Shown here in pieces: positions 52,230-64,000 of a stretch of 64,000 nucleotides of DNA. Position 1 is the first letter of the stretch; every line of letters begins with the position of its first letter. Below the pieces are notes generated by a model. The model worked only from the letters and a program-made list of their open reading frames with translations. It was not told the origin of the DNA and made no database searches. The position numbers and the translations under genes were made by a program. This stretch comes from Escherichia coli. GTDB taxonomy: Bacteria > Pseudomonadota > Gammaproteobacteria > Enterobacterales > Enterobacteriaceae. The stretch is taken from the NCBI RefSeq assembly GCF_001677475.2, contig NZ_CP015229.1; one strand, written 5' to 3'.

Positions 52230-52422
52230 AGCGGCATTTTAGCGGGTGATTTTGGTAAGCGCTAAATAGCTATTCGCAGACATGCGTAACAATTTTCAGA
52301 AATATCATAGTACTATATGATCTTAAATGCTTATCATTGATCAATCTGCTATCACCCGCTTTTACTGGCAATTGTACTATAATTTCTTAGGTTGCATCAC
52401 CCTGATGCGTGGGGAAACATGT

Positions 52423-53937
52423 ATGGTATTTAACAAAAAAATGTTTGTACTCATTATAATACCAGGCATTCTGGGGGTGTTACTATCGTTTGCTATGTCA
52501 ATATTCCAAATGAATAGAGATACGACAATTACCGCCGGTATTCTGTTAAAACAGCTTGATAATGTTACGCAAATTGTCCAGCATACGACAAAGCTTACCT
52601 CTATTCTGGTGATGAAGCCCTGCAAAGACATTCTTGAACAGTTGATTGCTAACGGAGCATTGACTCCCTATGTTCGAACAACGGGTCTTATAGAAAATAA
52701 TTTCCAAATATGTTCTTCAGTTAGCGGTTTCAAAAAAATGAATGTTAACGATGTTTACGGTACGAGCTTTCACAATAAAAATAAAGAATCACGTATAGTA
52801 TCAATTAGCGGTACAAGTTTTGTGCCAGGTAAAACAGCAATAGTGTTCCTTATGCCAATAGGGAATGATATGACAGCTTTTAGTATTGTAGAGTCACGAT
52901 ATATCTATGATCTAATGGATGTTCTTGATGATGAGAATGATGATTCATTTTCTCTTCGTTTTACTGAAGGGCCTGCAATTATTAGTGGTGTAAATAATAA
53001 TGACAGGTTATATATGTTAAAAAGAGATTTTAATTCTGCGATCAGTCAGGCTCGTCTTACAGTTACTACGCCGATGATTTCGTTATATCCCTATATCATT
53101 AGCAATGTGCTTTATATTTTGCCGTTATCTATTATTCTTTCTTTTATTCTCTATTTCTTATGGCAGCACTGGATGTCACGGAAAATGTCGCTGGCCGAAG
53201 AAATTAAAAAAGGAATGTCATCCGGAGAATTTTCTGTGCATTATCAACCAGTGTGCGACACGACAACCAAAGCGTGTCTGGGGGTTGAAGCGTTAATGCG
53301 CTGGCAACGCGAAGATGGTAAAAATATATCTCCGGTAGTTTTTATCCGCGCTGCAGAAGAGGAAAATTTAATAATACCGTTAACTAAGCATCTCTTTGAA
53401 CTGATTATTCAGGATGTTCAAAGCTGGAAAGTGAAAAAACCGTTTCACCTTGGGATAAATATTGCCGCGGAACATCTTGCACATCCTGATTTTGTTGCTG
53501 ATGTTTTACATATTAAAAATGCAATATCTGATAAATTTAACATTGTCCTTGAGATTACCGAACGCAATCTGGTTGAAGATACTGATCTTGCATTACAGAA
53601 AATAAATGAATTAAGGATCCATGGCTGTGAATTTGCAGTTGATGATTTTGGCACGGGATATTGTTCACTTGGCCTTCTGCAAAAGTTGTCTGTTGATTAT
53701 CTTAAAATAGATAAAAGCTTTATAGACACACTCACTACAGCGGAAGACGAAACGCCAGTTTTAGATATTATTATTAAGCTGAGTAATCGACTCAATTTGA
53801 TAACGATTGCAGAAGGTGTCAGTACTCCTCACCAGGCAGAATATCTTATTCATAATAACGTGACATTAGTTCAGGGATACTTATATGCAAAACCAATGAA
53901 AGCGACAGAGTTTTATCAGTGGTATATAAACAGATAA
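52423..53937 (+). CDS. CSS-domain EAL c-di-GMP phosphodiesterase (possibly VmpA/PdeT-like)
   Basis: ORF 52327..53937; TM1, periplasmic domain with Cys pair (KPCKD ... QICSSVSG), TM2, then EAL domain (EALMRW, EITERN, DDFGTGYCSL, KIDKSF, QGYLY); likely start MVFNKKMFVLIII. Confidence 0.75.
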   Translation: MVFNKKMFVLIIIPGILGVLLSFAMSIFQMNRDTTITAGILLKQLDNVTQIVQHTTKLTSILVMKPCKDILEQLIANGALTPYVRTTGLIENNFQICSSVSGFKKMNVNDVYGTSFHNKNKESRIVSISGTSFVPGKTAIVFLMPIGNDMTAFSIVESRYIYDLMDVLDDENDDSFSLRFTEGPAIISGVNNNDRLYMLKRDFNSAISQARLTVTTPMISLYPYIISNVLYILPLSIILSFILYFLWQHWMSRKMSLAEEIKKGMSSGEFSVHYQPVCDTTTKACLGVEALMRWQREDGKNISPVVFIRAAEEENLIIPLTKHLFELIIQDVQSWKVKKPFHLGINIAAEHLAHPDFVADVLHIKNAISDKFNIVLEITERNLVEDTDLALQKINELRIHGCEFAVDDFGTGYCSLGLLQKLSVDYLKIDKSFIDTLTTAEDETPVLDIIIKLSNRLNLITIAEGVSTPHQAEYLIHNNVTLVQGYLYAKPMKATEFYQWYINR

Positions 53938-54038
53938 AGAATCACCTTATATTAGAATGGTATTTTATTGTCTTAAAGTATAAACAAAGCAATCAGAATG
54001 CTATTAACTGGTGACAAACGCCAGGATCAACAATGCTG

Positions 54039-54530
54039 TTAGTGAGTAATACATATGAAGCGTGGTGTCCTGCCTGTAGAGAATACGTAGTTATAATCAT
54101 TTTGACGCGTAACATAATAATTAATTGAAGTGTCTGCTTTTATGAAGAAATCAGAAGTGATATTTTCAAGGACTTCATCGCTAATGTTATCATCTTTTTG
54201 TATTTTTTGGATTTTAACTGTGGTGAGATAAACGGTATCACGGAATTTCTTGTATGTAAAACTCACATATCGGCGGATGAAGCCCATCTTTTTTCCATCT
54301 ACCGTGTATGCACCCGTGAGATACATGTTTCCTGTGTTATTTTCAGAAATCATATTTAACGAAAAATATTGATCCATTTTTGTATGATCGGTGAAATTAA
54401 TAACATGGGCATTACATGATATGTTTTGCTCTGCTGGTTCATTAGCATGATGAAACGCAATATGGCTCAGAATTGCTGCAATAAAAGCACATAAAATTAT
54501 TCCCGCAAACAGAAAATATCTTTGAGTCAT
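54039..54530 (-). CDS. ToxS/PsaF/YqeJ-like small membrane-anchored periplasmic protein
   Basis: 163-aa ORF with a single N-terminal TM (YFLFAGIILCAFIAAIL); 4 bp after the upstream ToxR-like gene. Confidence 0.55.
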   Translation of the reverse strand: MTQRYFLFAGIILCAFIAAILSHIAFHHANEPAEQNISCNAHVINFTDHTKMDQYFSLNMISENNTGNMYLTGAYTVDGKKMGFIRRYVSFTYKKFRDTVYLTTVKIQKIQKDDNISDEVLENITSDFFIKADTSINYYVTRQNDYNYVFSTGRTPRFICITH

Positions 54531-54534
54531 ATGA

Positions 54535-62298: not shown

Positions 62299-62362
62299 GA
62301 AAAATCACTATTAATTGTGTGAGGAAATACTGGCTGACATTTACTGCCAGCCAGTAGATTAA

Positions 62363-62923
62363 TTAGAGGTAGCTCAGGGTGTATTCTGCGACAGCGGTAA
62401 TTTTACCGGCAGTGGCAGCTGCGCTATCGATAACGAAGTAACGCGCACCGAAGTCGTAGCTGGCTTCAGTATCGCCAACTTTCAGTGTCAAACCCGGTAC
62501 GTTAGTCGCGCCAGCCAGAGTTACTGGGTTACCAGAAGTGCTGGAATCCATTAACTGAATGCCAAAGCCTTTCGCCGCATCGCTGCTGGTATCACGGTTT
62601 CCCATAACACCCGTGCTAGCGTCAACGTCGTAGCCCAGGAAGGTGGTGTTGATTGCCTGATCTGCACCAGTCGGAGCCTGGCAGTTAGACACAGAAACCG
62701 TAAACGGCGTCTGGCCTGCGCTCTGGCCATCAGCTAAAGTTGCACCGAAGTCAGCCATGGCTACGGTCGGCAGCAATACTACTGAATTGGTTTGACCGTT
62801 GATATTTACGGAACAGGTCTGATCGGTTACTTCACCCTGAAAAGTGACTGTCGGTGCAGCCATGGTAGAAAAAGGTAATGCGATAGCTGCCAGCAGAGCT
62901 GCTTTTTTGAAAGTAGAAAACAT
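62363..62923 (-). CDS. Fimbrial major subunit (FimA-like pilin)
   Basis: 186-aa ORF with signal peptide, conserved Cys pair and C-terminal beta-strand; first structural gene of the operon. Confidence 0.8.
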   Translation of the reverse strand: MFSTFKKAALLAAIALPFSTMAAPTVTFQGEVTDQTCSVNINGQTNSVVLLPTVAMADFGATLADGQSAGQTPFTVSVSNCQAPTGADQAINTTFLGYDVDASTGVMGNRDTSSDAAKGFGIQLMDSSTSGNPVTLAGATNVPGLTLKVGDTEASYDFGARYFVIDSAAATAGKITAVAEYTLSYL

Positions 62924-62965
62924 ATTAATATCCTTGAAATTTAGAGTTAATATAGAACGAGATAA

Positions 62966-63589
62966 TTAATGCAATTGATACAATCTGACGTTTTTAAAAC
63001 CGGTAAATCTCCTTAACTGTATAAGTGCCTTGAAAATGTAAAAGCCATCACTATCACAAGCAATTTCAAACTTGTTGAAAACCGATATTTTATAGTGACT
63101 AATGTACTTGACATCCTTTTTTAGCAGGGTGTGCAATATTCTTTTGTTATCTATCTTAAAATATAAGTAATAGATATCCCACTCATACCTTGTCAGAGTC
63201 ACCTGCCTGATTTGCTGGTCTTTATCAGTACTTTTAATCAAAGTAATGAGTTTATTCAATTTTATATATCGGCTAATGAATGTTTGCTCTGAAAGTGAAA
63301 AGAAGATATTTCTGTTTTTCATCTTTCTTAGTGAAACAATCATTAAAAACCTGGCCAAATCTGGCAGTTTTGCAAGTATACTTACGTCATCCACTGCGAC
63401 AAGAAGTACGTTTTTGGTAAAGCGGTTATCAAATCTAAGTGTACTTAGGTCATTATTACATGCATTTTGAGAACAAAAAAAACACTCAATAAAAAAACGA
63501 TAATGGTGACCTAGTTTTGCACTTAATCCCTGAAGGTAATATAGATCATCCGAAATGATAATTACCCTTGTTAGTAAGTTCTTGTTCAT
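62966..63589 (-). CDS. Putative fimbrial operon regulator: degenerate receiver-like N-terminus plus degenerate LuxR/FixJ-type HTH
   Basis: 207-aa AT-rich ORF 43 bp upstream of the pilin gene; RVIIISDD and NVLLVAVDD resemble receiver strands; LTRYEWDIYYLYFKIDNKRILHTLLKKDVKYISHYKISVFNKF loosely fits the LuxR HTH pattern. Confidence 0.45.
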   Translation of the reverse strand: MNKNLLTRVIIISDDLYYLQGLSAKLGHHYRFFIECFFCSQNACNNDLSTLRFDNRFTKNVLLVAVDDVSILAKLPDLARFLMIVSLRKMKNRNIFFSLSEQTFISRYIKLNKLITLIKSTDKDQQIRQVTLTRYEWDIYYLYFKIDNKRILHTLLKKDVKYISHYKISVFNKFEIACDSDGFYIFKALIQLRRFTGFKNVRLYQLH

Positions 63590-64000
63590 TGCACTAACTC
63601 AATTGCTTGCAGCAAAACAGCCCATCTTCATGGAGTAAAAATTTTGAAAGTGAAAAATTTCTTACTAAAGATGTAATAATGGGCTTTCCATATGCGACAT
63701 AACAACTGCAGTAACACAACTAATCTTTATGTGTTCTTTATATAGAGAGTAACAGCGTGATATCTGTATCTCTAAAAGAATAGCGATGTCCTGCAATCGA
63801 TGAGCACAATATATGACATTCATCACATGTATAACAATTGAATTTACATTCATACTGGTGTTAATCGGTAATATAGTAATTTAATTCTTACCGAAAGATG
63901 ATGAGCAGAGTTTTATTCTGAATATGGTTGTTTTTTGCGGTCTGCTCAGGTTGGAGATGCTACATAATGGCTTCATCTATTACTTTTTATGTCAAAAAAG

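Follow-up and report, generated by a model that had tools for sequence, protein, structure and literature searches.

An accessory block downstream of dgcT in Escherichia coli assigned to O-island 47, an island lost from K-12 through an IS3-adjacent deletion

O-island 47 (OI-47) of the enterohaemorrhagic Escherichia coli (EHEC) strain O157:H7 EDL933 comprises z1528-z1556, spans 31,727 bp and includes vmpA/pdeT (z1528) and grvA (z1531) (PMC8565820, PMC10877973, PMC4287979). Reviews describe it as confined to O157:H7, O55:H7 and O145:H28. At the same site, K-12 MG1655 carries the insertion sequence (IS) IS3D, the pseudogene ymdE, ycdU and serX after the diguanylate cyclase gene dgcT (b1025), and the literature notes that IS3 truncates ymdE in phylogroup A, the gene measuring 945 bp in other strains (PMC4951805). 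Here we analyze this site in a 64,000-nucleotide stretch of E. coli contig NZ_CP015229.1 (assembly GCF_001677475.2), hereafter the window. A sequence-only reading of the window had given the K-12 order as it is in MG1655, and had proposed that the DNA following dgcT is an accessory block of the O-island type reported from EHEC at this location.

We conclude that positions 52193-64000 of the window (11,808 bp, about 36% of the element) are very probably the dgcT-proximal third of OI-47, an insertion that replaced an ancestral spacer, that K-12 has lost by deletion, and that the window lineage retains in full. Consistent with the proposed EHEC likeness, the interval 52230-63960 aligns colinearly and in full (100% of the query) with O157:H7, where identity is 96.5%. 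Its best match among complete E. coli genomes is 2012C-4221, also colinear over 100% of the query, at 98.4%. Nine of the ten encoded proteins are 93-99.5% identical to those of O157 strain EC4115; the comparison of the tenth, the usher, is uninformative, as its gene is frameshifted in that strain. The island had been expected to continue past the window end, and contigs 100% identical to the window do carry it on for another 21,441 bp to its right border. Measured against the empty site described below, it is 33,249 bp long (window 52193 to virtual coordinate 85441). In GCA_033745465.1, two overlapping loci stitched together take the island to ACP (acyl carrier protein) S-malonyltransferase, ycdU, (serX), ghrA, ycdX and ycdY, so that the downstream inspection suggested earlier recovered both the remaining island genes and the ycdU junction. 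The first genes beyond the window in carriers encode a two-partner-secretion (TPS) exoprotein and a ShlB-type transporter. A type II fatty acid synthase/polyketide synthase-like cluster follows (ACPS, a short-chain dehydrogenase/reductase (SDR), FabZ, ACP, an aminomethyltransferase and ketosynthases), and the distal end holds an ABC/LolA-like export set and the ACP S-malonyltransferase gene, then ycdU and serX. Gene content was the same in all E. coli carriers inspected.

To place the island in the species, the state of the locus was counted in 5,426 complete E. coli genomes. The island interval is present in 416 of these, with at least 80% of it covered in 378 (7-8%), which bears out the description of the block as accessory DNA. 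Most carriers are O157:H7. Others were isolated from animals (otter, baboon, pig and poultry) or from water, and the distribution of OI-47 is thus wider than the reviews state. As OI-47 is an already described island, the observation of an accessory block at this site is confirmed without being novel; the exact borders, the allele frequencies, the synteny with Pseudocitrobacter and the predicted regulator reported below are incremental details.

The left border lies at 52193 relative to strains with the empty site, where homology stops at 52192, and at 52240 relative to the IS3 junction of K-12; the earlier left bound of 52230 falls within 40 bp of both. In genomes of the K-12 type, dgcT ends in the island-type C-terminus RDVVNFCESP followed by a stop codon and 10 bp of island DNA, after which IS3 begins. 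K-12 shares this left junction exactly with two wild isolates, GN4741 and IBS28. On the other side, the IS3 junctions fall at island positions 32378 or 32563, nested 185 bp apart in the malonyltransferase gene, and the sequences flanking the element (TTT versus GGC/GTG) show no 3-bp target duplication. Indeed, ymdE is a 303-bp 3' stump of this ACP S-malonyltransferase gene, the last but one of the island. In the island coordinates of strain TB06051, the K-12 junctions are 821/822 and 32562/32563, a distance of 31,741 bp. Given the island-type dgcT end with its 10 bp of island DNA, the IS3 copy without target duplication, and the ymdE stump, the K-12 arrangement is an IS3-adjacent deletion derivative of an island carrier from which about 31.7 kb has been lost. 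IS3 inserted 10 bp past dgcT and then deleted some 31.7 kb rightwards. The block does not 'replace' ymdE and ycdU, as had been supposed, for both are the island's own distal end. The IS3-scar junction was found in 2,298 genomes (42%).

A third arrangement, the empty site, occurs in 1,437 genomes (26%), ST131 (sequence type 131) included. Here dgcT ends in KEAEILINRKDDE or similar, followed by its stop, and the distance to serX is 104 bp; island carriers lack 89 bp of this arrangement. The remaining genomes have larger deletions, and in one example IS1 has taken out all of pga through ycdU. A search of genome contigs for an outgroup DgcT returned one usable Escherichia locus, that of SCPM-O-B-8794, the other matches being unrelated GGDEF proteins. 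SCPM-O-B-8794 is a GTDB species representative labelled E. coli with about 82% identity in pga-dgcT and about 90% in the flanking genes. Its dgcT end and spacer are of the empty type, as are those of the divergent strain PT62. Because deletion cannot regenerate the 89 bp, which the outgroup shares, the empty site appears to be the ancestral state, and the island an old insertion that replaced 89 bp including the last 12-13 codons of dgcT.

We weighed this history against one in which the island is ancestral E. coli core and the K-12 and empty strains are all deletion derivatives. The K-12-type genomes, 42% of the total, demonstrably are, and the island has no mobility genes and a divergence similar to that of its flanks. 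Only 7-8% of genomes hold the island, however, and the 89 bp of the empty site, with its alternative dgcT C-terminus, is absent from carriers and present in the outgroup (about 82-90% identical) and in PT62, which makes an ancestral island very unlikely. The sequence-only reading had noted that its interpretation would change if the content were core and K-12 a deletion outlier. K-12 is indeed a deletion derivative, but with 2,298 genomes sharing the scar it is no outlier, nor is the content core, given the 1,437 empty sites and the outgroup. A recent horizontal transfer from an EHEC O157:H7-like donor would likewise explain a gene content and position as in O157:H7, and three genes (fidL, 100%; pdeT, 98.8%; major subunit, 99.3%) are closer to 2012C-4221 than the flank is (97.1-98.5%), hinting at some recombinational exchange between lineages. 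Such a donor is at odds with an identity to O157:H7 that is lower in the island (96.5%, and 92.2% for the StbD-like gene) than in the flank (97.9%), with the lack of mobility genes and attachment (att) scars, and with the finding that no complete genome exceeds 98.4% identity over the island; we consider a recent transfer extremely unlikely. Gene by gene, the window shares 92-100% identity with carriers within the island, compared with 97-98.5% in the flank formed by pga-dgcT. Flank haplotypes do not follow island state: K-12 (scar) and O157 (island) are 99.77% identical there, and 2012C-4221 (island) and YL03 (empty) 99.67%. Since island divergence is about that of the flank and flank haplotypes do not track the island, the data read as long residence, with homologous recombination apparently shuffling the three alleles, and are unlike a recent EHEC transfer.

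The block could also be a patchwork of separately acquired islets (phosphodiesterase, regulators, SDR and fimbriae), and here the evidence comes from another genus. Outside E. coli the closest relatives of the regulator GrvA are 49-52% identical. Pseudocitrobacter sp. RIT415 and related contigs keep, one gene after another, the order fidL-grvA-SDR-five fimbrial genes-207-aa open reading frame (ORF)-TPS-ShlB-ACPS-SDR-FabA-ACP-aminomethyltransferase (GCV_T). Over the nine genes from fidL to the ORF of 207 amino acids (aa), the regulators are 47-54% and the structural genes 72-89% identical in amino acid sequence. This copy adjoins sugar-phosphotransferase system genes, not dgcT, and lacks pdeT. 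On the strength of the conserved order, the island minus pdeT appears to be one coherent unit as far as the Pseudocitrobacter copy was read, and its GC mosaic is internal to that unit, the regulator genes and spacers being AT-rich. A patchwork would fit the alternation of GC between 32-36% and 49-51%, the presence of PdeT-like genes beside other fimbrial and ToxR/FidL sets in Enterobacter, and the absence of pdeT from the otherwise syntenic Pseudocitrobacter copy; pdeT may well be a separate addition. Against it, gene order from fidL to GCV_T is conserved in that copy, which argues for one unit, the low-GC parts are regulator genes and spacers within the conserved unit, and all E. coli carriers inspected have the same content, so that separate acquisition of the islets seems unlikely. 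In a Pseudocitrobacter-like chromosome (CP174503.1, L057 12026-19691), a Tn7-like element (TnsA, TnsB, TniB, TniQ) follows the first chaperone gene of the syntenic fimbrial operon, at the expected position of the usher.

Returning to the island as an old insertion, in relatives 61 bp separate its right border from the serX 3' end, and the border is thus tRNA-adjacent. In PT62 (NZ_CP090448.1, L060 4229-8242) a tyrosine integrase, IS903B and phage remnants lie at the serX-proximal repeat, and no serX is annotated in the stretch read. Tandem RtT-like repeats with fragments of the serX 3' end occur on the serX-proximal side of dgcT in both PT62 and SCPM-O-B-8794 (L009 11400-11700). Based on these repeats and the integrase element of PT62, the serX-proximal side of dgcT is an active integration hot spot. 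The island may have entered at this hot spot, perhaps by means of an integrase since lost, and would then have been maintained at the locus, through vertical descent and homologous recombination, as one allele among three. Several observations weigh against this history. Integrase and mobility genes are absent from the window part, and the annotations of the whole island in TB06051, 2012C-4221 and EC4115 list none either; among candidate att-like direct repeats at the island ends, the longest word common to both junctions is 9 nucleotides, a chance-level match; and a search within the island for a serX 3' fragment of at least 12 nucleotides found none. With no integrase, direct repeats or serX fragment at the ends, the entry mechanism is therefore conjecture. 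Furthermore, the empty site is called ancestral from a single outgroup species and PT62, and the scar in 42% of genomes may reflect either one ancestral IS3 event or the recombinational spread of an allele.

Within the window, ten intact ORFs follow dgcT at a coding density of 86.6%, eight of them assigned by Pfam or NCBIfam. The earlier description of the block as coding-dense, with a phosphodiesterase, a regulator pair, an SDR and fimbriae and with no visible IS or integrase, agrees with what we found: IS3 and tRNA genes are absent from the window part of the island, and Pfam and NCBIfam detect no transposase or integrase domains in the ten ORFs. Rfam places no family inside the block, the spacer at 63590-64000 included. 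Repeats over 50000-64000 are limited to chance-level short matches, and a promoter and terminator consensus scan of 52000-64000 performed no better than on shuffled sequence and was not used to define operons. GC content is 42.6% overall, being 36.2% at 52230-56964, 49.4% at 56965-62923 and 32.0% at 62924-64000, compared with 51.2% in the first 44 kb of the window; the island as a whole is a mosaic of 32-36% and 49-51%. The label 'AT-rich' therefore holds for the part from pdeT to the SDR gene and for the end, but not for the fimbrial operon. Low GC starts near position 50000, already in the core pgaA-dgcT spacer (33.5%) and in dgcT (39%), so composition is not a border marker. The AT-rich signal is that of the island's regulatory genes, not of its borders.

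The flanking core gene dgcT (ycdT; 50871-52229, + strand) has an island-type sequence in its last 37 nucleotides (52193-52229). It is frameshifted in O157:H7 FRIK2069 (L053 1-100). The first island gene, pdeT/vmpA (52327-53937, +), encodes a cyclic di-GMP phosphodiesterase (Pfam EAL, 2.4e-64; CSS-motif, 1.1e-13) that is 97.6% identical in amino acid sequence to the O157 protein VmpA. Its transmembrane segments at residues 31-62 and 253-280 flank a periplasmic CSS domain, with the EAL domain in the cytoplasm, and the EAL, DDFGTGY, KIDK and ICSS (Cys) motifs are all present. VmpA/PdeT of O157 (z1528) is reported to be an active cyclic di-GMP phosphodiesterase that affects motility and biofilm formation (Branchu et al., as cited in PMC4287979 and PMC5635171). 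By analogy, PdeT in the window would lower cyclic di-GMP, shifting cells towards motility and away from biofilm, and so may oppose the neighbouring DgcT. In the window strain, codon 752 of pgaA (- strand) is changed from TGG to TAG at 48027-48029, with the last 56 residues of the PgaA barrel lost; K-12, O157 EC4115 and YL03 all have TGG at this codon. Export of poly-N-acetylglucosamine (PGA) may thus be defective in the window strain, beside the DgcT/PdeT pair.

The nearest relatives of PdeT outside E. coli are 52-56% identical and come from Enterobacter, Klebsiella and allied genera. In Enterobacter hormaechei CP169086.1, a gene for a PdeT-like CSS-EAL protein (55%) has another ToxR-like/FidL-like pair and a chaperone-usher operon in its neighbourhood, which also contains IS3-type and IS21-type elements. 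A recurrent association of such a phosphodiesterase with ToxR/FidL proteins and fimbriae is suggested. On a contig carrying the PdeT-like protein named for Klebsiella quasipneumoniae, the gene lacks the ToxR/FidL-fimbrial neighbourhood.

Downstream of pdeT, two genes lie on the opposite strand. One is grvA (54535-55347, -), which encodes a ToxR-family regulator of 270 aa (Pfam Trans_reg_C at residues 25-103, 2.5e-11), 97.8% identical in amino acid sequence to GrvA of O157. It consists of a winged helix-turn-helix of the OmpR/PhoB type at the N-terminus, a single transmembrane segment at 149-170, and a C-terminal extracytoplasmic domain of about 100 aa. In EHEC, GrvA is the product of z1531 in OI-47. 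Its gene is activated by RcsB, which is reported to bind the grvA promoter (PMC8565820), and GrvA represses gadW/gadE, raising expression of the LEE (locus of enterocyte effacement) and lowering acid resistance (PMC8565820, PMC10877973). The second gene, 4 bp downstream of grvA, encodes a FidL-like protein of 163 aa (54039-54530, -) with a hydrophobic segment at residues 1-29 forming an N-terminal membrane anchor. The annotation of identical genes gives PF27292 YqeJ_C and, weakly, PF15941 FidL_like, and one match bears the RefSeq name 'FidL'. The two genes probably form one operon, and FidL, by analogy with marT-fidL, is probably GrvA's membrane partner. Both grvA and the SDR gene have decayed in 2012C-4221 (L001 21306-23594), the former through an internal stop, the latter through a frameshift. 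In the window, a divergent spacer of 680 bp with 32% GC (55348-56027), presumably a promoter region, separates grvA from the SDR gene (56028-56819, +; RefSeq start 56037). The SDR product resembles KduD and gluconate-5-dehydrogenase (Pfam adh_short_C2, 1.8e-52), and scores 296 bits against the NCBIfam KduD model, under the cutoff of 369.

The fimbrial genes, all on the minus strand, encode a major subunit of 186 aa (62363-62923; Pfam Fimbrial, 7.1e-15), a first chaperone in the StbB position (61576-62298; PapD_N, PapD_C), an outer-membrane usher of 840 aa (59001-61523; PapC_N, Usher, PapC_C), a StbD-like large subunit of 444 aa that is a putative tip adhesin (57651-58985; Pfam Fimbrial at 263-444; NCBIfam StbD, 3.7e-33), and a second chaperone in the StbE position (56965-57654; PapD_N, PapD_C). 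The usher, the two periplasmic chaperones and the pilin-domain subunits are thus all encoded by intact genes, with lengths as in TB06051 and Pseudocitrobacter. The usher gene is frameshifted in O157:H7 EC4115 (L037 25770-28287) and intact in FRIK2069. Compared with O157:H7, the StbD-like subunit gene is the most divergent coding gene (92.2% nucleotide and 93.0% amino acid identity, versus 97-99% for its neighbours), which is consistent with allelic diversification of a putative tip adhesin. From its gene content, this Stb-like chaperone-usher operon would build fimbriae with a variable tip adhesin. A literature search by z-numbers found no published name for the operon, and the locus is not named in the text of the fimbrial catalogue of Wurpel et al.

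In E. coli as in Pseudocitrobacter, the major-subunit gene is immediately preceded upstream by an ORF of 207 aa (62966-63589, -), annotated as a hypothetical protein. The protein has no significant match in Pfam, NCBIfam or PDB sequences, and its family has 11 representatives among 1.84 billion proteins. A weak match to GerE appears in 3 of these 11 relatives (best E value 0.003), and the family profile aligns to the C-terminal domain of RcsB with an E value of 0.43. An AlphaFold (AF2) model (pLDDT 82, pTM 0.78) has a beta-alpha N-terminal domain and four C-terminal helices, and Foldseek matches it over its full length to the PDB structures of StyR, VraR, EvgA, RcsB and FixJ (E values 1e-4 to 1e-3, probability 1.0). 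Within the family, D13 and D14 are conserved, D66/D67 mostly so, and S85 is nearly invariant, with an invariant R106 where a receiver lysine is expected. We predict a divergent two-domain regulator of the NarL/FixJ (LuxR) type. This assignment relies on a predicted structure whose TM-scores are modest (0.35-0.5). Because of its fixed position upstream of the major-subunit gene in both genera, the 207-aa protein is most likely a local regulator of the fimbrial operon. Beyond it, the window ends in the start of an unannotated 1.39-kb spacer of about 33% GC (63590-64000), which precedes the TPS exoprotein gene just past the window.

From the domain content and the literature on the O157 orthologues, the window part of the island may be seen as a module for regulation plus adhesion. 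It counts against extending the documented functions to this strain that a role of GrvA in LEE control presupposes a LEE, whose presence the window cannot show. A broader reading, which we offer tentatively and consider doubtful in its entirety, would make OI-47 not an EHEC-specific virulence islet but one of the alleles in an old polymorphism with three states at dgcT-serX (island, IS3 scar and empty site), acquired as a block from a Pseudocitrobacter-like enterobacterium. The left arm would then be a self-contained adhesion circuit, in which the orphan NarL/FixJ-like 207-aa family, hitherto unrecognised, and GrvA-FidL control the Stb-like fimbriae and the TPS adhesin, with PdeT added later and coupling the circuit to the DgcT/PGA cyclic di-GMP node.

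The strain that carries this copy has no close match among closed genomes. Across the 5,426 complete genomes, identity does not exceed 97.9% for window positions 1-25000 or 97.8% for 39001-64000, and the complete-genome matches, from different hosts, are roughly equidistant from the window. The host therefore belongs neither to O157:H7 nor to a closely sampled clone. Searches for exactly matching proteins identified GCA_043014985.2, 100% identical to the window over 16,350 bp, and GCA_033745465.1, 100% identical over 9,021 bp; three further draft assemblies are 99.8-99.97% identical. The window lineage has been sequenced as drafts, without a closed genome.

Elsewhere in the window, an accessory ORF of 447 aa (36916-38259, -) in the putP/efeU interval, annotated as a hypothetical protein, is present in EC4115 and TB06051 and absent from 2012C-4221 and YL03. 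The protein weakly matches the N-terminal domain of PipB2 (E value 0.0013) and no other domain, and might be effector-like. Rfam finds naRNA4, derived from repetitive extragenic palindromic elements, at 18536-18613 in the cbpM-torD spacer. The element coincides with the one place where colinearity with TB06051 is interrupted (82 bp, versus 20 bp there). At the gathering level, Rfam also reports Ysr251 (193 bits) at 43851-44044 (-) in the phoH/pgaD interval, and the cspA thermoregulator at 7430-7852 (+) upstream of a cold-shock gene.

Identifying the block as OI-47 and fixing its borders to the base is mostly housekeeping. What it corrects is polarity: to speak of an O-island versus a K-12 backbone misstates the direction of change, as IS3D and ymdE are the scar of an island deletion that about 42% of the complete genomes share. 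The synteny with Pseudocitrobacter and the regulator predicted upstream of the fimbrial operon are testable leads for island genes that are largely uncharacterised, and neither changes the general understanding of such islands.

Individual parts of the island can be compared with better-studied systems. Like phosphodiesterases of the PdeC/PdeB type, PdeT has a two-cysteine CSS domain between two transmembrane helices, as in PdeC. In enzymes of this class, a periplasmic disulfide and processing by DegP/Q control activity (PMC5897775), and the likeness would allow a DsbA/DegP-type redox and proteolytic control of PdeT as well. MrkJ of Klebsiella and SfaY/PdeY of E. coli are, like PdeT, EAL phosphodiesterases encoded near a fimbrial operon. 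Unlike these fimbria-linked enzymes, PdeT is encoded three genes away from the operon, and it is absent from the Pseudocitrobacter copy. The grvA-fidL pair parallels marT-fidL of Salmonella pathogenicity island 3 and yqeI-yqeJ of E. coli, in which a single-transmembrane winged helix-turn-helix regulator is likewise followed by a FidL/YqeJ-family protein, and both pairs adjoin adhesin genes. However, sequence identity to these pairs is low (GrvA is 30% identical to MarT; PMC10877973), and the documented targets of GrvA are gadW/gadE, and through them the LEE, rather than a neighbouring adhesin. As in stbABCDE of Salmonella, the fimbrial operon encodes a major subunit, a chaperone, an usher, a StbD-like subunit of about 440 aa and a second chaperone, and its best NCBIfam models are those of Stb. 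All scores nevertheless stay under the equivalog cutoffs (702 of 996 for the usher and 115 of 363 for StbD), and the window fimbriae appear to be a related but distinct type.

Taken as a whole, the island in the window matches OI-47 of O157:H7 in its location between dgcT (ycdT) and ycdU/serX, in the identity, order and orientation of its genes, and in the extent missing from K-12, about 31.7 kb (31,741 bp from the TB06051 junctions, 31,727 bp in the literature). It differs in that its host is not O157:H7 and in that its StbD-like subunit is a distinct allele (93% amino acid identity). All ten genes in the window are intact, whereas elsewhere the usher is frameshifted (EC4115) or grvA and the SDR gene are broken (2012C-4221). 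The K-12 arrangement, dgcT-IS3D-ymdE-ycdU, shares with the island its type of dgcT 3' end, the 10 bp of island DNA and the right end of the island, and differs in that the roughly 31.7 kb between these shared ends is replaced by a single IS3.

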